Origin: Sphyrna mokarran
Taxonomy: Eukaryota
Direction: 5' to 3'
NCBI GenBank assembly: GCA_024679065.1
Contig: JAGIQG010000006.1
Location: 78,740,001 to 78,804,000, forward strand
DNA length: 64,000 nucleotides
This document shows, in pieces, positions 400 through 61,130 of this stretch. Made by a program: the position numbers and the translations under genes. The stretch's first letter is position 1. Each line of letters opens with the position of its first letter. Under the pieces are notes generated by a model, which worked only from the letters and a program-made list of their open reading frames with translations, did not search any database and was not told the origin of the DNA.

Positions 400-3247
400 A
401 AATTCAATTTTAGAATATAACGTGCGGCAATGCAACTATTGTACAAATAAAGTACAGCAATCATTAACTTTGCAAAACCAGATGACAAATATCCTCGCGA
501 GTCAGCGATGCTAACACAACTTGACTACAAGTCCTGTTCCGGCTTACAAATCTGCTTAAATTAGAATTGGTTATAAATCAATTAAATTTCACAAACTCTT
601 TAACAAACAAAATTGAGGAAAACAGACACTCCTGTTTAAAACTCTTTCTACCTCCAGTTCTTTCCCACAAACTGGAGTTGTATGAACTCAACTTCAAAAA
701 CACTGTCCAAAAGTATGTGGACTTAAAAATCATTACTGTGCAATATTATTTGTTGATTTTGTTCCCCCCCACCCTCATTCCCACTTAAAAATTGCAATAC
801 TATGCTGACCACATAGATGCATACCCAACCAGGGACCAGTGGAATTAGTAACTCTGGCATGACCATATTATTTAATTTAAAGGGCTGTCAGTCACTGAAC
901 ACAAACTATACCACCTCCAACTATACAAAGATGTTGAACATTAAGCAAAACAACGACCTGTGGGTTCATACATCTCCAGTTAGTCTAACTGTTCCATAAA
1001 ACAAAGTACACCGCGAAGTGACATCAGCTATGACATCAACTCAAACCTAAAAATAAATAAGTTTCAATTACAAAACCTAGTTAACTGATGAAGGAAGTCT
1101 TGAACAGAAACCAACTGGCATGATTGGCTTGGAAATGCATAAAATCTCTTCTGTTTGGATGCCGAGGCTAGACTGCTTTTCTTTTTTGGAAAATGACTGA
1201 ATAAATTAATCTTGGTTGCTTCAGCCAAAGCTGTAACTGTGTAGATGTAAAATATATGCAACTATGACAGCTGATAGTCTATACCATAACGGCATTTCAA
1301 GCTCATCAACTTACAGAATTAAAATCTTCATGCAGTAAGTAAATATTTAACTGGTAAAAAGGCAGAAAATATTGGATTATGGCAAAACAAATTGTCGTCC
1401 AAAGAGGACTTTTCTTTTAAAGACACTGCGACAAAGCAATAACGGCAAGCTATAAAACTGCAATGATTATAATAAAACTACTGATACACAGCAATACAAT
1501 TTAGTGTTGCCAACAGGAAATTCAACAAAACTTCTTCCATCACCAAAAATCACCCAGTTCAAACTTCACAAAACAACTAAAATTAATGAGTACCACATTT
1601 CTCTCGTAGAGCCCTACACCTGCAGTTTACCAATTAACAATAGGGCAGGTAATTTGTTATTTAGAAATCAGCATTTTCACTGTTTCTTGGGCTTATTACA
1701 CAAGGTTGTAGTACGTGGGCAGCAACATGCACTACACACAGTAAGTGCAGAAATTCAGGGCATTTGTTGTGTGATACCAGTCGTGTCAAATTATTTACTC
1801 CAAATCAAAATTCAGGCCTCACAGGATTGCTTAAGTCCATTTGATGGAATACAAGTTGCATTTCAACTCACACAAAAGGTGTAATCTGTCAATACAAATT
1901 CTGGCACAGAAGTCTTTAGCCTCCTGTACTTTTAGTGCTATTTAAAAATAAAACAAGCCTAGTGCTATACCTTCATGTTCACTTCAGTAAAATTAAACTT
2001 CAGCAACAATGCTTAAGCGCTGACGATCATCTACAAGATACAACTATCTCTAGTTAAGTCAGATATTACAATTTTCCAATAGCTGTGAAAGAGGAAATAA
2101 ATGTTTCACCTAGCTGCATACAGGTCAAATTACTCTTTTTCAAATTCCATTAGCAAGATTTTTAAACTACTATAAATTAAGTATACAGTAATCTACTTCA
2201 GTGGTATTTTCAGAGAATGCTATGTTCTACAGTATGTCAATACTTGGTCCGTGTCATGTATATTTTGAAGTTACTGTAAGTATCTGCAACATATTAATTT
2301 GAGTTCCAGTAATAGGTAAATATGAGGCCATATTTTTTTAAAGTGGTTCCCATTTCATCAATTTCTCTCTTCCAATTTCTATAGATCATGTTTCAACTAT
2401 GATAAAGGTGGGTTGTGATTACTTATTGCAGCTAATGGACAAAAAACACAGATCACTGCACTATCCTTTCCAATATACAAGCAGTTCTCAAATAGCAGAG
2501 CTCGGTGAACATGCTATCAGTGCATCCGAAAGGATTGCTGAAAAGTAGTTATAGAACTCAGCAGCTTAAAAAAAAATAATAACAGAGCGATAGGATTTAG
2601 TCAATGACCCACGATAAAATAGACTGAGTGCTGGAAATCTAAAGTATAAACAAGAAATTATAAGAATACACTTGCAACTTAGATAGTGCCAGGAAGTGAA
2701 AAAGTTAAGCTGTCATCGCAGGATTTTTTTTGTAAAGATATTCCTTCTGAAAAAAAAAGTCAACTTGCTTTCCCTTTCTTTTGGATGCTAACTGAATTCT
2801 CATGAGTACGTCTATTAATGTTGCCAGTGTTAAAAGTGTATACTGAAGCATAACAGAAGTTTGAGATCACAAAGGAAGATCTCAGAAAGGCGCTGCTCAT
2901 CTTACATTCCATCAAATAGTGCGAATTTTGCACTATAAATGCAAGTTAAATATTCCTGCTACACCTAGAATTCAGCACCTGCAGATGCAAATCTTGCCCT
3001 ACATTATCTGATCCTTCAAAGCTTTGCAATATTTTCTAAACTAAAACTTTACATAAACAAACTTCTTCCGGTCAAAAAGTGCATAACACTGGTGCTCCTT
3101 CAGGCAAGAGCAACAACATTCATCATCTTAAGTTCTACAATAATAGCAGCCTATTAAAAGCAAAATATAAGGTGCATGACTTGTCTAGTGATCTAGTAGG
3201 ACCCTAGTTCACAGACAGTTCCATTTCATAAAATGTATGCATTGCAG
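400..3247 (-). other. ZNF367: Probable long AU-rich 3' UTR of ZNF367
   Basis: Repeat-poor, U-rich minus-strand sequence downstream of the stop codon. The poly(A) site cannot be determined from sequence. Confidence 0.5.
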
Positions 3248-3482: not shown

Positions 3483-3585
3483 CTAGAAGACAGAATTCAG
3501 AAAGTTAGCATTTCCAGTTTAACAAGTTTTTCGTCACATCCAACACTGGGAAATAAACCACTTTGGAAGATCCATTTTTAATCAT

Positions 3586-4170
3586 CAATCATAGAATCCC
3601 CACGGTGCAGAAGAGGCCATTCAGTCCATTAAGTCTGCACTGACTTTTTGATACAGCATCTTTCCCAGGCTCTCTTTCCCACTGTAAGTGCAGAAATTCA
3701 GGGCATTTATTGTGCAATGCCATGTATGTCAAATCATTTGCTCCAAATCAAAGTCCAGGCCTCACAAGATTGCTCAGGTCCATTTGATGGAATACAAGTT
3801 GCATTTCAACTCACACAAAAGATGTAATGTCAAACATTCTGACACAGAAGTCTTTAGCCTCCTGTACTTTTAGTGCTATTTGAAAATAAAACAAGCCTAG
3901 TGCTATACCTTCATGTTCGCTTCAGTAAAATTAAACGTTAGCATGCCTCACACATTTCCCATGGCCAATCCATTTAACCTACACATCTAGTGACACTAAC
4001 GGGCAACTTATCACGGTCAACCCACCTGTCCAACGTATCTCTGAAGTGTGGGAGGCAACTGGAGCACTTGGAGGAAGCCCATACAGACATAGAGAGAAGG
4101 TACAAACTCCATTGACGCAAAGTTGGAATTGAATCCTGCCTGTGAGGCAGCAGTGCTAACCACTGTGCCA
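3586..4170 (-). mobile_element. HE1/V-SINE-type tRNA-derived SINE, interrupted by an insert at 3684-3943
   Basis: Reverse complement of a GGCACAGTGGTTAGCACTGCTGCCTCACA head, V-domain-like GGTTTCCTCC core and CR1-like TCTATGA tail. Confidence 0.8.
3684..3943 (+). repeat. Direct copy of ZNF367 3' UTR segment 1741-2005 inside intron 4
   Basis: Colinear match from GTAAGTGCAGAAATTCAGGGCATTT to CTTCAGTAAAATTAAAC at both loci. Confidence 0.93.
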
Positions 4171-4892
4171 ATTTGCAATAGCTGGAGGCCTTTCTTTGGC
4201 ATTATTTCATCCAAACACATGTACAGCTTTCCCAGAAATACATACCTAACAATTGATCTTTTAAAAAGGAGCTCTGGGGGAAAAAAGCACTTAAAAATAC
4301 AACCAATCTCTCTCCACGGAATAACAGAAAAGTCCACAGCAAATTCAGTGAAGAGAACTTCTTCTGCGGTATAAAAACTAATCAATTTGCTGTGTCACAA
4401 TTAAGGTGAAGATAAATGGGATCACAATTTACCAAACAGAAAACTAAAAGTTGGGGATAAATACAGAGATCCAGAATAGACCAATCAGAATCCAGACACA
4501 TAGCTCTGGTAAATCAACACAATGAACCTTAGAATATAACTCACCTTACAAACCAGCTACTCAAAGTGCTCTCACTGATCCAAAATTTTACCATTTACAA
4601 CATGCTCAAAGCAGTAATCAAAACCTGATTTGTTCTCCCTTCACTATTAGATCAACTACTGAGACAGTGGGTGGGTTTCAGCATCCAACTGTAAGACATC
4701 TAATTTTCAAAAGGGGCAGTGTCCAGCAGGTTGCACCTTTCTTCTCCAAACTTCAATCTGAATCTATGGAATTGTTTCCAGAGTGAATAATTGGATATTT
4801 TAGCAACACGTGATAATAATGGATTATTAGTTGATACACTGAAAATAAAAATAAACCTTTTTCCAGAAGATATTCTTTCTAAACATACTCAC

Positions 4893-9910: not shown

Positions 9911-10174
9911 CTAAAAACACACCCTTTAAACTCCAACTATTCAAAACTGTTCCCTTTCTTCTAACAAGAAATCCCTTAAATCGAAAACATTCGGATCGCA
10001 GTGCAGAATTTAAGCTTAAGCAATGTTTTCTTTTAAAAATTTTTTTTAAAAAGTCTGCTGGAGTCTGTTTCACTCCCTATCCTGGTACTAATAATCTGCT
10101 GTCTGTTGTGGCTTTTTTTTAAATATGCGTTGGTGGGGGAGGTTGCTCCTACCGATCTTCACTCACCGACCGAC

Positions 10175-10432
10175 CTGTGAAAGATGATCCAGTTCCCGGT
10201 GCAGAGCGGCCGCTGTCCCGCACTGGGCTTCCCTGGCGCCGGAGCCGGTGAACGGGGCACCGGGGCTGAGGGTGACATTGTGGGCGTTCTCGCCCCAGCG
10301 CCACGGGTACACCATGAAGTCACTGAAGCCGGGGCTGGTGGGGCTCAAGTCCAGACGCTTGGGTTTAATCGGGGTGGTCTTAATGACCGACACACGCCGG
10401 GGAGAGCCGCCGGCCATCTGGTTGTCCGCCAT
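10175..10432 (-). CDS. ZNF367: ZNF367 coding exon 1 (MADNQMAGGSPRRVSVIKTTPIKP...TSPGFSDFMVYPWRWGENAHNVTLSPG...HLSQ)
   Basis: Contains the ZNF367 signature SPGFSDFMVYPWRWGENAHNVTLSP. ATG in a GCC-ATG-G context. The phase-0 donor CAG|gtcggt matches the phase-0 acceptor of exon 2. Lies in a CpG island. Confidence 0.9.
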
Positions 10433-14200: not shown

Positions 14201-14672
14201 GTAGAATCATAGAATCCCTACAGTACAGAATGAGGCCATTTGGCCCATTGAGCCCAACCAGCAACAAACTCACCCAGGCTTTAAGCCAGTAACACCACAT
14301 ATTTACCCCACTAATCCCCCTAACACTAAGGGGAAATTTAGCATAGCCAATCCACCTAATCTGCACATCCAGAAGGAGACCGGAGCACCCGGAGGAAACC
14401 CATTCTTTCCGCCTGATCCTACTGGAAAGATAGTTACATATTTGTTGGCAATAAAGCCCTTTGATCTTTAGCCTCATTGAATCACACTTGGTATATTCCA
14501 CTTAGGATGCTGAAAATCTGAATAAAGACAGAAAATGCTAGAAACACTCAGCACACCTGACAGTATCTGCGGAGGGAAGAATGTGCAAACTGCGCACAAA
14601 AAGATCACCTAAGGCCGGAATTGAACCTGCGTCCCTGGCGCTGTGGGGCAGCAATGCTAACCACTGTGCCGT
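14201..14672 (-). mobile_element. HE1/V-SINE-type SINE, interrupted by an insert at 14403-14580
   Basis: Tail AGAATCATAGAATCCCTACAGTACAGAA, core GGAGCACCCGGAGGAAACCCA, and the head resuming at GAATGTGCAAACT...GCTAACCACTGTGCC. Confidence 0.8.
14403..14580 (-). repeat. Inverted copy of 15397-15570
   Basis: TAGTTACATATTTGTTGGCAATAAAGCCCTTTGA is the reverse complement of TCAAAGGGCTTTATTGCCAACAAATATGTAACTA. Colinear over about 175 bp. Confidence 0.92.
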
Positions 14673-15956
14673 GTGCTGGGAAGAGCTATATAGCAGCTTT
14701 AATTTTTTTTAAATGATACCAAGCCACAAAAGGAAATGTCAGATCAGATCAGCCCATCAAGTCTACACCAACTCTCTGATAGAGCATCTTACCCAGACCC
14801 TATTCCCATAACCTTATATATTTACCCTGCTAATCTTACTTACTTATTTTGGAAGGGAACAACCTTAGGATCAGTTAAGACTTATCTAGGTAGCCTCATG
14901 AACAGACTAGAAATGGAGGGATACAAATGGATGGTCTAGTTAGAAACACATGATCAGTGCAGACCTGGAAAGCCGAAGGGCCTGTTCCTGCGCTGTATTG
15001 TTCTTTGTTTTAATCCCCTAATCTGCACTTCATAACATAAAAAGACGTGTCATGGTTCATTGTTGATTATATGTTCAAATGAAGAGACTCTAGCATTGCA
15101 GAGAAACATATTTTTTAGCAGGAATAACAAAACAAGAGGCAATGTTGTAGTAATTAAACAGATTTAGATAACTCAAACATCAAGATTCAGTACTTTTGGA
15201 ATGTTTTAATCAAGATGCCAATGGATAAATATCTGATTATCCCACAGCCTCGTCCATGTTTCCTTATGGACACTGAAGAATATACAATACTGTCTAACTG
15301 CATGAAGACTATTTTGACTTAGAATGATAAATTTCTCCTAGTTTGATGAGACTTTACAGTTAAATGAAAGATCATTGACCTGAAAGGTTAACTCAATTTC
15401 TCTCTCCACAGACATTGCCAGATGCCCTGAGTGTTCCTAGCATTTTCTGTTTTTATTCAGATTTTCAGCATCCTCCGTGGAATATGTCGAGGGTGATTCA
15501 ATGAGGCTTCAAAGGGCTTTATTGCCAACAAATATGTAACTATATTTCCAGCAGAGTCAGATGGAAATAACTATATTTCCAATGACTCTTCCTGTTATTC
15601 CTCATTGGAGGTAACTTTGGCTATATGAATTGCTCTCATTTTGCAGTGAAGGCTCACAGCCAGGAAGTTCAGATCAAGCTGAATAAAGTCTAAATAAGTA
15701 AAATGACTTCCAAAAAATTGGAAATCAGTTTGAAAGTAGTGAAATCAGTCTCTTAGAATAGGTCCCATGAGCATGAGCCTTCAGCTGGCTGGCCACAGTC
15801 TTTGCAGTTTAATTCTTTATAGGCTTCTCGTATGCCAGTTTCATTAAACAATGACTCCTTATTCTACTTCTGCCTTGCTGACTCTGACTATTTCCGCTTG
15901 GCTTTAGCAACCAGTGTGCTGCTGTTAAACACAAAACCCTGGGTTAAAGTCTAAGT

Positions 15957-17165
15957 CAGATTTGTCCAACACACAACCTGCAAACCACTGCGCAACCCAC
16001 CAGCCCTTTCTATCTGGCCCGCAGGTATGTTCAAAATGCCAGTAAGCGAATTTGAAGATTTTTCAAAGTATTTCTCCTCCAATCAATCACAGGCCAATTT
16101 CTCTGCCATATTTGCTGTTGTTAGGATCATTAGTGAACGAATCAGCAACAAAAGTGGAAGAGGATTAGTCTCTAGTGGAGGAACAACTTTCTTCAGCCTG
16201 AGGCTTGCATATATAGCACAATGCCTGTGGTCAGTCTTCTGGGGAGGGAGGGAGGTTTCCAGGATATGGGAAAGAGTCAAAGTGTTTGCTGGGCACTGGG
16301 GAAGTAGCTGCTGAGTAGGGAAGGAGTGTCTGCTGGGCAAGGCCACAGTGGTTGCTGGGTAAAGCCAGAGTGCTTGTTGGGCTGGGCCATATTGGCTGTG
16401 AGTTGGGGGAAAGTCCCTGCACAGTGGAGATGGAGCGGCTGCAAGCAGGAATAGAGTGGTTGCTGGGTATTGCTAGAGTGGCTGCTCAGCAGAGAGGGGT
16501 GGGAAAGAAGTGACTATAGGGCCAGGGGATGAAACTTGGTGGGAGATTGGGGGGTGGGGGTGGAGGGAAATTGGCACTGGTTGAGGGAGAGAAGCTGGCA
16601 TATGTGTGTGGATGAGAGTGTGTGTGTGTCTGTGTGTGGGTGAGAGTGTGTGTGTATCTGCATGTGAGTGAGAATGAGTGTGCGCATATGAGAGTGTGAA
16701 AAAGATTGTATGAGTTTGTATAAGAATGTGAGTAACGGTGTGTCTGTGTGAGTGACAGTTTGTGTGTGTGAGTGATTGTGTGTGTGCGAGCAAGAGTGTG
16801 AGTATGAGTGAGACTTTGAGAGTGTTCACTCCCAGTCTCAGGATTCACACTCATCTTCACTGTCGTGCAACAACATACTCATACAATGGATGTGAGTGAA
16901 TAACTACCCTGAGAGTGAGAGTGACCCTCTAGAACTCTAATGGTCATCTTTATTAATTACTCATCATTTTAAATTATCAATTTATTGCTTTGACATTAAT
17001 TCGTTTTTGTTCAGAATGTTGCTTCTTTTCTTCAGACCACAACATTTAGTTGAAATTTATCTTAATATTGTCCCAAATATTATCTTTTCCAAATTTGTTC
17101 ATGGCCTCTTGAGCGAAATAAAAAAGTGAAATGTGGCCACTTGCACAAAAGGTTGGACAATCCTG
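15957..17165. mobile_element. Non-autonomous hAT (Charlie-like) DNA transposon containing a degenerate (TG)n tract
   Basis: TIRs CAGATTTGTCCAAC (15957) and GTTGGACAATCCTG (to 17165). Flanks GTCTAAGT and TCCTAAGT resemble an 8-bp TSD. Confidence 0.6.
16600..16830. repeat. Degenerate (TG)n/(GAGTGT)n microsatellite
   Basis: Visible GT-rich tandem array. Explains the His/Thr-rich spurious ORFs in the track. Confidence 0.85.
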
Positions 17166-21359: not shown

Positions 21360-21513
21360 GTGGGGGAGGGAGGTAAATAAAGGCGCCATATTGGGAGTGT
21401 GGGCCGGCCGGAGGAGGAGCTCCGGGAAAGCTGGAGAAGCCCGAGCAGAATAGAGTTATAAACCGGTGTGAGGAGGGGGAGGCGGCGGTAGGCGGTAGGG
21501 AGGGAGCAGGGCT
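21360..21513 (+). promoter_or_regulatory. HABP4 promoter / 5' UTR, start of CpG island
   Basis: YY1-type GCGCCATATT 21383-21392, TATAAA-like element near 21457, GC boxes. The CpG island extends to about 22000. Confidence 0.55.
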
Positions 21514-21883
21514 ATGAAAGGAGTTATTTTGGCCGCTCCCGCTGCCGCCATGCAGGAGACTTTCGGCTGCGCCGTCACCAATCGCTTTGACCAGCTGCTT
21601 GACGACGAGTCGGACCCGTTCGACATCCTGCGGGAGGCCGAGGAGAAGAAGCAGAAGAAGAAAAAGGAGGAGGGAGGCCGGAAAAGCAGGGCCGGAGCCG
21701 GGAGCGGGGCCTCCGGCGCCACCTCGGCCGCGGCCGCCGCCGCCGCCTCCAACGCGGCCAAAGCCGGCAGAAGGGAGTCTCAGAAGGCCCGCAAGATCCC
21801 GGCCGGCAGCGAGGCCGGCAGCAGGCCCGGGGCAGCCGGTGGCACCGAGAATGTCTTCATGGGCAGCGGGCAGAGGAGAGAAG
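21514..21883 (+). CDS. HABP4: HABP4 (Ki-1/57) coding exon 1 ([43 protein letters not shown]...[10 protein letters not shown]...)
   Basis: IHABP4_N motif [24 protein letters not shown] with the HABP4-type MKG leader. Phase-1 donor GAA G|gtccgt matches exon 2. Lies between ZNF367 and CDC14B. Confidence 0.9.
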
Positions 21884-22157
21884 GTCCGTATCCCCTTCCC
21901 CGGGCTCTGCGGCACCCGGATCAGATAACCAGGGAGGAGTGCAGGCCGCCCGGGGGAGGAAGGGGGTTGGGGGGTGGATAGTGAGCAGCGACCGGCGAGT
22001 CAAACTTACTCCTTTTGTAAAAATGTCGGGCAGGAGTGCGAATGCAGTTTTGGGTTTAATATCTATTTTAAAAAAAAAACTCCGCACATGGTAAAATGCA
22101 GCATTCAGTAGGAAATTCATTAATTAGCTTGCAAAGAGGGTTTGAACTGAGCAGCGT

Positions 22158-54879: not shown

Positions 54880-57800
54880 TAGGTTAAAATGAAGGGAATA
54901 ATATGACTATTCTGAATTCTGCCTGACAACAAACCTGGATTAGTCATTGGACTGGCTGAGTAGGGCAAAAAATTTTCACACCTAGGAGCAAAGGGCAAGG
55001 ACATCTGTGCTAACAGTGAATAGACTTACCAGCTCCAAGCTTCTGAGGCAAAAGGAAAAGCACAGCAGTTGTGCTCAGCACACCTAAGAGGTACCAGTTC
55101 TCAGCAAGCTACCAAAACCAGATGTGGAAGGTGGTGGGGGGTAATCTCCTGTCAAGGAGATACATTCTGAATCCATCTAAGAAATCTTTCAGTTTCATCC
55201 TGGTTTGGTCAGGGAGGAAGAAGATCATTGGAGCAGGTTTCACTGATGGTAATGGGATATGGGCAATTGTCTAAATAGCAAGGGAGACACAGTCAAAGTT
55301 ACTACCCAGTGAACTGGGAAAATATTAACTGATTGGAAGCTAAGAACAACTGTGAACTGCTTGGTAGAAGGACTAAAATTCTGAAGAGATTGTGAAGTGC
55401 GAAGGAGGAATGTTCCCTGGTGTACTTTAAAGTATAAACTGCCTACAAAAATTGTATAGTTGTGTTTTTAGTAATTTGTTACACTAAAAATCTTAAAATA
55501 TAAAAACTTGTGGGATGTCCCTTTTTCAGCTGTTAACTGGAAATTTGCATGTCTTTATAAATTATATTGGTCTCCACAGAAATCATAACAAATGGGGAGG
55601 AGCTGTTATGGGATTTTGAATCTGCAGCAGAGACCAGTATGCTGGTTTAATCAGCGTTAACAAGTACAAGATTTCATTGACTTCTTAAGATGGCTGTTTT
55701 TTGCTAGAAGCTGTCCTCAAAAAAAGACTTGTTTTTGAGTTTCTTGATCATATTTTAATTTAAAAGCAGTGGTAGAAAAATTAGAAATAGATTTAAAATT
55801 ATGCACTAAATAAGAAGATAGTTGAGGTGTTGGCTTAGCAAGCTTAGCACTTGAGGAAGATAGATCAAGATGAACTTGTTAGGAAATCAAAAGCAATTTT
55901 AAGGGGTGGAAATAAAGTCTGGGTTAGGTGGGTTTAATTTAATGGTTCTGTGCCTGGAAGAGACCTGTAGTTATATTCATGCAAGAAAAAGATATTTGAA
56001 TTTGTGGAGATTGATTAAAATCCATTTGTGATTATATTGGGTTTAGAGGGTTACATGAAAAAAAACACCTCCTCTCTCAATAATACTTTTACTTAGCATT
56101 TTGAAATCCAGTCCAGGGTTTTCAAATGATACTTTTAAACAAAGCAAATCCAGTCCAGGAATTTACACCAACCCTTTAGGATCTCTGTCTTCATGCCTTT
56201 TACTCTGAGATCCAGTCAATGATTCCCAAAGATGTGTCAATTCACATTCCACAGGCTGTAATAAAGTTTCCCAAACCTTAAAGTCACTTCAGATGTCTTT
56301 CTGATGTCTCAGGCTTCCTCCAAGCTTTGTCTATTTTTACTTCAGTCATCTGTTCTCATACCTTTAACCTGAGACCACCTGGAAACACGTCTTCATTTCA
56401 GTACTTTCCTTAACTAGCCGCTCTTTAGATAACCATTACTCGGAGGATAGGAACAGCAGAAGGCCATTTGGTTCTTCGAGCTTGCTCTGCCTTTCATTAC
56501 GATCAAGGCTGAACAAAGAACAAAGAACAACACAGCATGGGAAACAGGCCCTTCGGCCAACGAGCCCGCACCGCCGTCCTAACGTCTTAATGACATATAG
56601 AGACCAATATAGGGACAATGAGCTGATCATCCAACTCAATAGCCTAGTCCTGCTTTTTCCCTATAACGTTTGATCCCATTCTCCCCAAGTGCTATAACCA
56701 GCCGCCATTTGAGTAAGTTCATAGTTTTGGCATCAACTATTTCCTGTGGTAATGAATTCCACAGGCTCACTACTCTTTGAGCCTCACCTCTGTCCTAAAT
56801 AGTCTACCCTGAATTTTCAGACCGTGAGCCCTGGTTCTGGACTCTCCCACCATCGGGAATAGCCTCCCTGCATCTACTCTGTCTAGTCCTGTTAGAATTT
56901 TATAAGTCTATGAGATCCCCCTCATTCACCTCAACTCCAGCAAAAACAATCCTAACCTTGTCAATCTCTCCTCATATATCAATCCCCCCATTAGCCTGGT
57001 AACCCTTTGCTGTATTCCCTCGAGAGCAAGAACATCTTTCCTCAAAAAAGGAGACTAAAACTGCACACAATACTCTAGGTATGACCTCACCAAGTGTTAT
57101 ATAATTGCAACAACACATCTCTGTTCCTGTACTTGAAACCTCTTGTAATGGAGGCCAACATGCCATTTGCCTTCTTTACTGCCTGCCACAACTGTATACT
57201 TCAGTGAGTGGTGCACAAGGGCACCTAGGTCCTGCTGCACATTCCTCTCTCCCAATTTACAGCCATACTCTGTTGTTTATTGAGTGAAAAATGAATAACC
57301 CAACAGGCCACTGCTTAGCAATAAGAGGCCACTTCCCAAAGAGAAAGAAACGGCTTTCTTTATCCTTAGTTTTAACTGGAAGCTAAAGCAATTGGAGATA
57401 TGTAGACAACTAAAAGCAGTTAGTTTAGAAGGCTAGAGGGGGAGCATCTCTCAGCTTTACTATAACAGAAAACATACACTGGAGTAATGCTACTTAAAGA
57501 GCAGCTCGTTAAGGACACTAAAGAAACGAAGAGGTGGTCTGAAGTTAAAAGTACAAGAACAGATGACTGTAAGTAAAGACACAGTTTGGAGGAAACCTCA
57601 GACACCAAAAAAGTCATTTGAAGCGATTTTCAGGTACGACAGATTTTGCTAGAGCCTGTGGAATATGAATTGAAATATCTGTGGGAACACAGGCTGGATC
57701 TTGGAGTGGGTAAAAGCCCTCAAGACAACAAATCCTAAAAGGGGTTGGTGCAAAATCCTGGACTAGATTCACTGGTGGAAGTGTCATCTGTAAAACCTGG

Positions 57801-60800
57801 CCTGGATTTTGGAACGTAAACAATTAAGGCTTACTGGTGAAATGATTTTAATGCGTGTTCTTGGGAGAGGAATTTGGAGACTCTCATATGACAATCATTT
57901 GGGAAGATTCAAAGTAGAAATTCACAGACTTTCACTTGGGTTTAAAACGAAGTGTGTATTTGACCACAGCCATCTGCATGTGTTAATTGAGACCATTGTA
58001 GCTTCAAAAGTACTTTGTTATCCATATTAAATCTTAAAACCAATGTGTATTTAAACAAAGGGGGAGTAAAGGAGTATTGTATTATAATCCATTTTTTTCA
58101 TGATTAATAAATGTTTTCTCGTTGTTAAAAGTAATTAGCGGTTCTGTGACTCTGTTCCTCCACTTTTGATTAAACAAAAATTAAAAGTAACAGTCTTCCC
58201 ATACAGGTACATCAACTGTGATTGTAACAAACTGCAGATTGAGTTATCCAAGATTTGGTGATAAATGATGCAGCTTGAAATGGGAAATGAAAATATGAAT
58301 TCAAAGAGGAGGAAAAGGAAATGAAAGAATCTAAAAACTTGAATTGCAAACAGAGGAAATTTAAACTAGAAAGAGAAAGGTTTTCATTATGCAAGCGCGG
58401 AGTAGCAGACAGGCTCGACAATGGATAAGATTTAACTCCTGGCTTTGATTTGGCAAGGAATATTTGCCTACTACCTAAATTCAGTGAGAAAAGAGTGGGA
58501 AATGTATTTTGTCCCATTTGAGAAACCTTACAAAGTTACAATGGCCACAGAAAATTTGGACAATCCTAATACAGAGTTTAGTAAGGAAAACAATGGAGGA
58601 TTTTTCAAATCTTTGTCATAAACAGACTACAGCTTATGATATGGTTAAGACTGCAATCCCAAAAGCCAACAGGGAAAGATTTAGAAATTTGGATTAGAGA
58701 CAGAATTGGCTGTTTATGGAATTGGCTGAAGAAAGAATGTTTGATCAATGATATAGGATAATGAAAATGGAGCAAGATTTTGAAAGCCTTAAGAGAGGTG
58801 ATGTCATTGGATGACTTTATAACTAGTATTGCTTTAGGAATCAGGTTCCACCTAGAAGAACGCAAGGTTGCTAAAGTTAGAAATTCTGGCTATCCCACAA
58901 ACACAGAGATAGCAGCAAACCCAGATACAAGTGAGTTGATAGTGAATAGATCGCTAATTGCAATAGTGACAGCAGTAAGGAAGATATTGTGCTGCTTGGA
59001 ATAGTGAAGAAGATAGTGAGACACATAGAAGTGACCAACCAACACTACATGAAAGCTAAGTCAGGAGCTTTCATGGGCATGTCTAGTGTTTCTCCAGAAA
59101 ATACTTGCACCAATTAAGTAAAGAACAAAGAACAATACAGCATGGGAAACAGTCCCTTCAGCCCAACGAGCCCACGCCATGAGTGAAACTGAGGCCAATC
59201 AATACCATTGAATGTATTTACAGTCGTGCAAGTCAGAGACAAAGATAATAGGAATTTTTCATTTGAGTAAAGTAACTCCATTTTTATTTGATAAAGGAAG
59301 CAAAAAGATTTTGTTCTTAGATATGGGGTCAGCTCGAAGCTTGAGAACAACATGAATTCCTCTCCAGAGTTTGCCAAATAGAAGTATATTGATAAAGGAC
59401 ACTGATGGAAATTATTTACTGTTGCTTTGTGTAGAGTGAATTTGAGTTGCGCTTCAGGCATTTGGTCTGTTATCTCTGGAATGGTCTCAAAATTGCCCAT
59501 GAATGATATTGATTTTATACTGGGAAATGATCTACTGAGATATAGGAAAGTGCTCCCACCTCCAGGGACGGTAGGCAAGTCTACAGAAATTGACAGACAA
59601 TCAAGGACTATTTGTAATTCTGCTTTAGAAAGTATATTTCCACTAAAGATATAGCAAAGAATCAAAAGTTCAGGCTCCAGAGTAACGAACGTTTGAAACG
59701 TCCGACTAGGGTAATGTCAAATGCAAATGAACTGAACCCACTGCTTTCAAATTGCCTGCAGATCCTAAACTCAGCTGCATGTGTTAAACAGAATACAGTA
59801 GCAGTGCTCCCGGCTAATGGGCAGAGACAGTGCTTTAATCCAAAATGATTTGGCTCTTTACTGTAGAATTATAAGGTCAGTTTAAGGTTTTGGGACCTAA
59901 AACTTCAGAATGAAGAAACTGTAGCTCCTATTCTGAAAAAAATTAAACAAAACTTACACTGAATGGAAAGATGAATAACAGAAAAAAATATAAAAGACCA
60001 CGACAGCGAATTAAAGAATGTGAAGAATTCTTGTCAGAAGGAAGATAAAATAATCTCTGAGGTTCTTAAGAAAGAAGAACCATAATCTTGTGTTTAAACA
60101 AGATAAAGACAACTTTACTAGTTGTCAAGCTGAGACTTTTTAATGGAATTAGACATTAAAAAAAAACTGGATGAGATTGAAGGTCAAACATTAAGACTTG
60201 GGTCGTCACTCACAGACTGATTCTAAAGGAAAACAGAAGGAAACACTGAATCCAGAAGGTAGAGAGGGAATTTCTTCTGAGTCTATGATTTACACCTGCT
60301 GGGATTCCAAAGCCAGAGGGATTCCCAGAACTCAGCAATATTGTTCATGCCAATGTTTCCCAAATTGATTCAGTTATGCCATCTTTTAACTAAGCACATG
60401 GAAACACGAACTTTAATCGTCACGAGAAAGGAGTTTTAAGCAAAGAAACTAATCTTTAGTCATCAAGAAAGAGTTATAAAAAGGATTTCAATTCCCAATT
60501 GTTACATGCACTTGGATTAAATAAACACTATGCTGCCAAGACAGGATTGTTTAATAAGAAATGTGACAGCACTGCAGGATAATGGCACTTTTACTGTATG
60601 CTGTAAGTTAGCTGTTAGAGTGTATAGAATGTTGAGTTATATTTTGACTAGTGCTCATGAAAACTCATCACTTCATTTATTAGTATTACAATTATGGAAG
60701 ATTATAATATTCTGGAGTTAGCTTAAATGAAGAGGGTCATGCAAATTCTACCTGACAAGCAGCCTGGCTTAGTCAAGAGACTGGCAAAGCAAAGTGTGAA

Positions 60801-61130
60801 CTTCTCAGGCTTGGGAGTAGAATGACAAGGGCAGCTGTGCTAACAGTAAATAGTCTTGTCAGCTCCAAACTTTTGGGCAGGAGATGACACATGAAAAAGT
60901 ACAGTAGTAAATGTGTTTGTCAGAGAGAAACTGCAGGTTGTACGTTATGGAAATTAGTGGCGGAGAGCCACTGTCTCTAGTCGAAAGGACAATTCTAAAG
61001 TGATCTAAGGAATCTGGAAGATTTATTTTGGTATGGCCAAAAGGAGGAATAATTATCGAAGTGGGCTTTACTGCCAGTAGTGGATTTGGGAAATTCCTAG
61101 AAAGAGTGTGCCTGGAGGTAGTCACTCGAA
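54880..61130 (+). mobile_element. Decayed Ty3/Gypsy LTR retrotransposon in the last CDC14B intron, with nested insertions
   Basis: Direct LTR-like repeats at about 54880-55590 (ending CATAACA) and 60725-61130 share GTGCTAACAGT.AATAG.CTT..CAGCTCCAA. Gag remnant FDLARNICLLPKF...WTILIQS (58440-58870) and protease-region motif LPMNDIDFILGNDL (near 59500). Confidence 0.7.
56440..57275 (-). mobile_element. CR1 3' fragment nested in the LTR element, itself carrying a second CR1-tail insertion (56511-56620)
   Basis: Reverse of .P.VLCAVLVSFFEERCS coding remnant. The second tail is ACAAAGAACAAAGAACAACACAGCATGGGAAACAGGCCCTTCGGCC. Confidence 0.8.

Follow-up and report, generated by a model that had tools for sequence, protein, structure and literature searches.

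Repair-mediated duplications were defined by Pace, Sen, Batzer and Feschotte in 2009 by the same anatomy as that found here: a transposable element is split by an inserted copy, 50-600 bp long, of DNA lying less than 5 kb away, with a small deletion, short microhomology and no poly(A) (PMC2671141). As described there, such duplications occur in SINEs, LINEs, LTR and DNA elements roughly in proportion to their abundance, with a mean length of 162 bp, a mean distance of 1.2 kb, deletions of 1-15 nt and microhomologies of 2-9 nt. In that account, a Mb of repeat DNA holds 0.62 such duplications in human, 0.19 in zebrafish and 0.08 in chicken, and no cartilaginous fish was surveyed. A related class, cited in the same text, are the 'doublets' of Thomas et al. 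2004, short, non-tandem and closely spaced duplicates for which an origin in break repair was proposed (PMC2671141). Here we describe a 175-base inverted copy inside a shark SINE, which probably is a repair-mediated duplication, likely written into an already resident element during the repair of a double-strand break.

The inverted copy at 14.4 kb and its donor

BLAST self-alignment of the 64-kb window in which the copy was noticed gave positions 14403-14577 as the reverse complement of 15401-15570 (84.0% identity, E 1.7e-48; Table 1); 23 of the 170 aligned bases are mismatched, and the donor has a gap of 5 bases. The two segments are separated by a spacer of 824 bases, and their longest perfect run is 35 bases. 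The inverted copy inside a minus-strand SINE that the initial annotation had described is therefore real. It splits the element between GGAAACCCA and the AGAATGTGCAAACT motif, where the family, judged from five further SINE copies aligned from the window, reads ..GGAAACCCA-CGCAGACACGGGG-AGAATG.., and about 9-13 bases of the SINE consensus are missing at this point, the fragments being otherwise collinear. Donor and SINE share a purine run at the right junction, where the microhomology is 1-5 bases depending on the register: the most economical register gives 1 base, and one with an additional indel gives 5. The left junction has no exact microhomology. Inspection of the junction sequences revealed neither poly(A) nor a target duplication around the insert.

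Table 1. Positions of the features discussed, counted from the first base of the 64-kb window
Feature	Positions	Strand	Remarks
Donor of 3.7-kb event	1737..2005	+	Downstream of last ZNF367-like coding exon; probably 3' UTR
Second host SINE	3580..4172	-	Last intron of ZNF367-like gene
Acceptor of 3.7-kb event	3680..3943	+	Direct copy of 1737-2005
ZNF367-like zinc-finger gene, probable first coding exon	10163..10430	-	C2H2 fingers in downstream exons
Host SINE, 3' part and tail	14201..14402	-	SINE copy alignment; separate ~10-base deletion at 14369/14370
Acceptor at 14.4 kb	14403..14577	-	Inverted copy of 15401-15570 in SINE; ~9-13 SINE bases replaced
Host SINE, 5' part, tRNA-like head	14578..14677	-	SINE copy alignment
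Short high-copy old repeat 'B'	15353..15479	.	Repeat matches in genome
Donor segment	15401..15570	+	Repeat homologies continue past copied ends on both sides
LTR-like repeat family, 5'-truncated 3' end	15480..15576	-	Alignment of family copies
ORF with first coding exon of HABP4-like gene	21499..21981	+	PF16174, E 4e-31

The donor consists of parts of two repeats, one of which, repeat B, is putatively Penelope-like. Marks of such elements are a hammerhead core and a link to an RT plus GIY-YIG ORF. An intact hammerhead core was found in 0/18 and 0/22 copies of B (1/22 when one mismatch per motif was allowed), two long ORFs lie near one of 18 copies, and Rfam gave no match at gathering score and three below it. 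For the other part, 15476-15570, which had been presented as apparently unique, all 13 scored candidates of a genome search matched, 11 of them elsewhere at 74-82% identity. These relatives, aligned over 15 other loci, form an LTR-like 3' end with AATAAA and the terminus ..TTATTACA, and a PBS-like TGGC is present in 4/15. The four copies with this motif continue into common internal sequence, and the remaining copies resemble solo LTRs. A 13-base direct repeat at 15539-15581, where the LTR-like fragment is truncated, is perhaps a small templated join. Further repeats of the neighbourhood are a set of degenerate 22-base repeats that gives way to a TG-rich simple repeat (16303-16480 and 16590-16830) and, upstream of the window, a 1.8-kb degenerate tandem array (contig C1215:78675627-78677468).

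Among 40 scored matches of 405 candidates, both halves (LTR and B) are covered by the insert and the donor only. Since the full LTR-plus-tail junction is confined to these two, the copy is local although its flank is multi-copy, and the earlier reading of a local copy rather than an independent transposon insertion is borne out. Three LTR copies extend about 20 bases beyond the LTR/B junction and then stop, and insert and donor have bases in common which the LTR family lacks. The 15.4-kb site is the source, because homology to both repeat families goes past the copied ends there and not at 14.4 kb, where the insert is cut inside both repeats. Some donor sites differ between related organisms and the window; in 4/4 such cases, among 40 of 265 matches listed, the related organisms have the base of the insert. 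This argues against an assembly artefact and for two copies that diverged independently for a long time, their separation predating the split of those lineages. A further feature of repair-mediated duplications is an outgroup orthologue in which the element lacks the insert; in four related runs, no contig listed bridges the insertion site, and joints that skip the insert may stem from paralogous SINEs.

Host SINEs and the relative age of their inserts

The host SINE is presumably HE1/V-SINE-like. It is an ordinary old member of the main SINE family of this genome, and among 3516 candidate relatives in the genome the best 40 share 76-83% identity with it. In its tRNA-like head, length of about 330 bases and short tandem tail it is like the HE1 V-SINE as described in PMC3747384, where the HE1 V-SINE/HER1 LINE pair is known from sharks and rays.

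Divergence of the host SINE amounts to 39/270 non-CpG sites from the family consensus and 35/270 from a consensus of the ten nearest copies (13-14%), and to 9.5% when limited to the most conserved SINE columns. Donor and acceptor of the 14.4-kb event differ at 19/162 sites (11.7%, over two branches). A same-time origin of insert and SINE has P=0.0005 at 12% host divergence, P=0.012 at 10% and P=0.13 at 8%; given the 9.5% of the most conserved columns, a younger age of the insert than of its host is probable though not certain.

A second local copy inside a SINE, which the initial annotation had also noted, is confirmed at 3.7 kb by two out of two matches in the genome search (Table 1). Two further SINE acceptors were found outside the window, at contig C2:40000385-40000588 (the C2 event; inverted, donor ~0.5 kb away, 94%) and contig C772:15012083-15012221 (direct, donor 2.3 kb away, 89%), so that two of the four are direct and two inverted. 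For the 3.7-kb event (19/258 donor-acceptor differences) a same-time origin has P about 1e-4 at 8% host divergence, and for the C2 event (9/200) P about 2e-6; judged by divergence, both inserts clearly appear younger than their host SINEs. Gene conversion between copies would also make donor and acceptor look younger.

When interrupted SINEs were recognised from adjacent fragments, 25 were obtained: 19 with repeat inserts, two unclassified and four flagged as local. This adjacency rule missed the 3.7-kb event, which other screens found. One of the four flagged SINEs, on contig C557, was dropped, its 22-base match being attributed to chance. For a 64-kb window to contain two SINE acceptors, P is about 0.003 per window; the genome holds ~43,000 such windows, from which this one was chosen for its events, and such a choice can supply a local cluster of this kind.

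Private local duplications in 1.77 Mb

The frequency of such copies was assessed in a sample of 1.766 Mb in 16 blocks, one consisting of the window extended by 100 kb to either side and the other 15 being arbitrarily placed stretches of ~100 kb. Pairs were excluded if shorter than 50 bp, if the gap was below 50 bp or above 10 kb, if more than half was tandem repeat, or if a distant match scored at least 60% of the local one. The sample yielded 60 private local pairs, with a median length of 155 bp and a median distance of 1149 bp; 57 lie within 5 kb, 7 are at least 97% identical, and pairs are present in 15 of the 16 blocks. A stricter filter left 53 pairs within 5 kb, where the between-block rate would predict about 0.6, with a sharp drop beyond 5 kb. 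Orientation is unbiased (31 direct, 29 inverted, P=0.90).

Four young non-SINE pairs, picked as the likeliest transposon ends, were checked against the genome, and the possibility that they are terminal repeats was rejected, as each of the four has just two full-length genome copies. For the remaining 52 pairs outside the window the comparison was with the 1.77-Mb sample only, except for the C2 pair. Two older private local pairs of the window at 74% identity (56104-56441 / 57482-57809 and 54915-55050 / 60744-60879; one inverted, one direct) lie outside SINEs. At C1548:30005836-30008460 and C557:30002144-30003414, two or three local copies overlap in chains whose members differ in orientation, resembling chimeric or serial events of break repair.

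An acceptor in a recognisable repeat was present in seven pairs, namely four SINEs (two in the window, C2 and C772) and three other repeats, leaving 53/60 pairs without an identified acceptor. SINEs make up 6.5% of the sample (527 profile hits). Of 1500 random sites put to the same acceptor test, 68 passed in SINEs and 330 in other repeats, from which 2.7 SINE acceptors are expected among 60 pairs, compared with four observed (P=0.29); outside the window the count is 2/56 against 2.5 expected. SINE interiors thus receive local copies at the rate predicted by their share of the DNA, numbers being small, and the 'recurrent SINE-mediated capture' of the initial annotation finds no support. A non-random orientation is likewise absent, from the 60 pairs as from the SINE acceptors. 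Among repeat acceptors alone, SINEs account for 4/7 against a 17% share, with P=0.019 when both window events that prompted the finding are included and P=0.20 (2/5) without them. Other-repeat acceptors are under-represented (3 versus 12.3 expected, P=0.002), presumably because the filter drops donors that lie in repeats.

Mechanism and comparison with known systems

The repair-mediated origin that we favour would begin with a break inside the resident SINE and the loss of ~10 SINE bases. A free 3' end could then have annealed to nearby DNA about 1 kb off, in the broken chromosome or its homologue, where DNA polymerase would have copied 175 bases off the plus strand of the donor before the nascent strand was joined to the opposite SINE end within the short shared purine run. 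Candidate enzyme routes are SDSA, polymerase-theta synthesis or a replication template switch, among which the sequence cannot tell. Local origin, direction of copying, the small deletion, the absence of retrotransposition marks and the occurrence of similar pairs in both orientations are shown by the sequence. The microhomology is weak and cannot distinguish DNA polymerase from reverse transcriptase. The SINE is a mere marker showing which copy is new.

The initial annotation had instead proposed a reverse-transcriptase template switch during SINE insertion, and had named as contrary to it a multi-copy 15476-15570 and the lack of an orientation preference. As both are found, the SINE-capture mechanism is unsupported, and we consider it very unlikely that, at SINE insertion, the reverse transcriptase of the partner LINE left the SINE RNA for a local plus-strand transcript or for exposed flank DNA and then returned. 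Template switching in TPRT is an accepted route to LINE-1 chimeras in the account of PMC13174262, and inverted duplications of flanking DNA are described at L1 integration sites (bioRxiv 2024.12.14.628481). A jump would also suit the two SINE events of this one window and the age of the 14.4-kb event, incompletely separated from that of its SINE. The same holds for three local copies that adjoin SINE 5' heads (C1:120023114-120023947, C783:12022116-12023187 and C224:60094541-60096345), the first of which is inverted, has its partner ~200 bases past the tail of the SINE and comes closer to that SINE in age. A strict head test gave 3/322 against 3/3000 random points (Fisher P=0.014) with a distance window set after seeing the data, but a looser flank test gave no head excess (4/213 heads, 7/241 tails, 11/760 random). 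Two of the head-adjoining pairs are 9% diverged against 17% for their hosts, and one 18% against 14%; a minority of copies at SINE 5' ends could arise during retrotransposition itself. For the 14.4-kb insert, however, two switches would be required, with a return ~10 bases further along the same SINE. The U6/LINE-1 chimeras of PMC13174262 are described as same-sense partners and not as internal inserts. The inserts of two other SINEs (3.7-kb, C2) are far younger than their hosts, and neither SINE enrichment outside the window nor an orientation bias was observed.

Very unlikely as well, if slightly less so, is a break after SINE insertion that was patched off local nascent RNA by reverse transcriptase or polymerase theta. 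Such a patch fits the younger age of the insert, and at 3.7 kb the template strand is the transcript strand of the zinc-finger gene, which is presumably ZNF367-like. The 15.4-kb donor is intergenic, ~5 kb upstream of this minus-strand gene and 6 kb upstream of the plus-strand HABP4-like gene; placed between two divergent promoters, it may plausibly be transcribed on either strand. For the same reason the gene layout predicts neither RNA polarity, and polarity at 15.4 kb lends the RNA template no support. The spread of pairs over 15/16 blocks and their sharp fall beyond 5 kb are as expected for DNA proximity, and in the text of Pace et al. 2009 poly(A/T) is absent in 39/39 proximal cases (PMC2671141). 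Both halves of the copy are repeats, which would suit two chance insertions, less than 1 kb apart, of a composite transposon (LTR end plus B tail), but this idea is largely refuted and hardly credible: no third full junction exists among the 40 scored matches, insert and donor share private bases against the family, and the insert is cut within both repeats with target duplication absent.

If the region were transcribed, the inverted arms would form an RNA hairpin, for which 153-157 arm-to-arm pairs were computed. A look-up of RNA data listed none that carry this sequence. A DNA cruciform is implausible with a spacer and a longest perfect run of the sizes found here (824 and 35 bases).

Outside the window, five acceptors in ~0.45 Mb of recognisable repeat correspond to 11 per Mb (95% 3.6-26). 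By our judgement, about three of the acceptors pass the single-donor rule of Pace et al., giving 6.6 per Mb (1.4-19), and all private local pairs together amount to 33 per Mb (25-43). These densities appear roughly tenfold or more above the human and zebrafish values published in PMC2671141, a comparison across different pipelines, for which reason the high density is only a lead. We tentatively suggest, as a possibility rather than an expectation, that this shark-type genome carries repair-made local duplications at a density at least ten times that reported for any vertebrate, ~33 per Mb or by extrapolation ~90,000 genome-wide, still forming and half of them inverted. If so, the germline would be copying nearby DNA unusually often at breaks, or keeping the scars unusually long. 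A literature search, with subscription journals outside its scope, found no study of such duplications in sharks. The single event is of little weight, and its value is as a pointer to the density question. Should the density survive a matched comparison, slowly evolving cartilaginous fish would offer a large, datable record of germline break repair, and tens of thousands of pairs would allow a direct test of DNA against RNA templates (strand versus transcription) as well as of differing repair-pathway use in sharks.

LINE-1 chimeras, made by template switching, RNA ligation or twin priming, likewise join a retroelement to other cellular sequence, but as described in PMC13174262 their partners arrive with the element and target duplications flank the insertion. 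The 14.4-kb insert, in contrast, lies within the SINE, has taken the place of some SINE bases and seems younger than its host, and it differs in position and timing from the L1-linked inverted duplications as presented in bioRxiv 2024.12.14.628481. Doublets, according to PMC2671141, are near-identical and shorter than 100 bp, whereas the 14.4-kb pair measures 175 bp at 84% identity. The closest match is to the duplications of Pace et al. 2009, as delimited in the text of PMC2671141. The insert has 175 bp (at least 50 bp in their definition) and a consensus gap of ~9-13 (collinearity within 30 bp in theirs). It has one match among the 40 candidates scored out of 405, 824 bases off (>50 bp and <5 kb) and covering at least 80% of the insert. 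The breakpoints show a deletion of ~9-13 nt and a microhomology of 1-5 nt at the right junction with none exact at the left, and no poly(A/T) lies at the insert end. Unlike the cases in that account, the present donor is composed of two fragments of old repeats. The 60 shark pairs, with medians of 155 bp and 1.15 kb, match the means of 162 bp and 1.2 kb given by Pace et al. (PMC2671141), and the 14.4-kb event is one more case of the process described in 2009, ordinary in the parts of this genome that were sampled.
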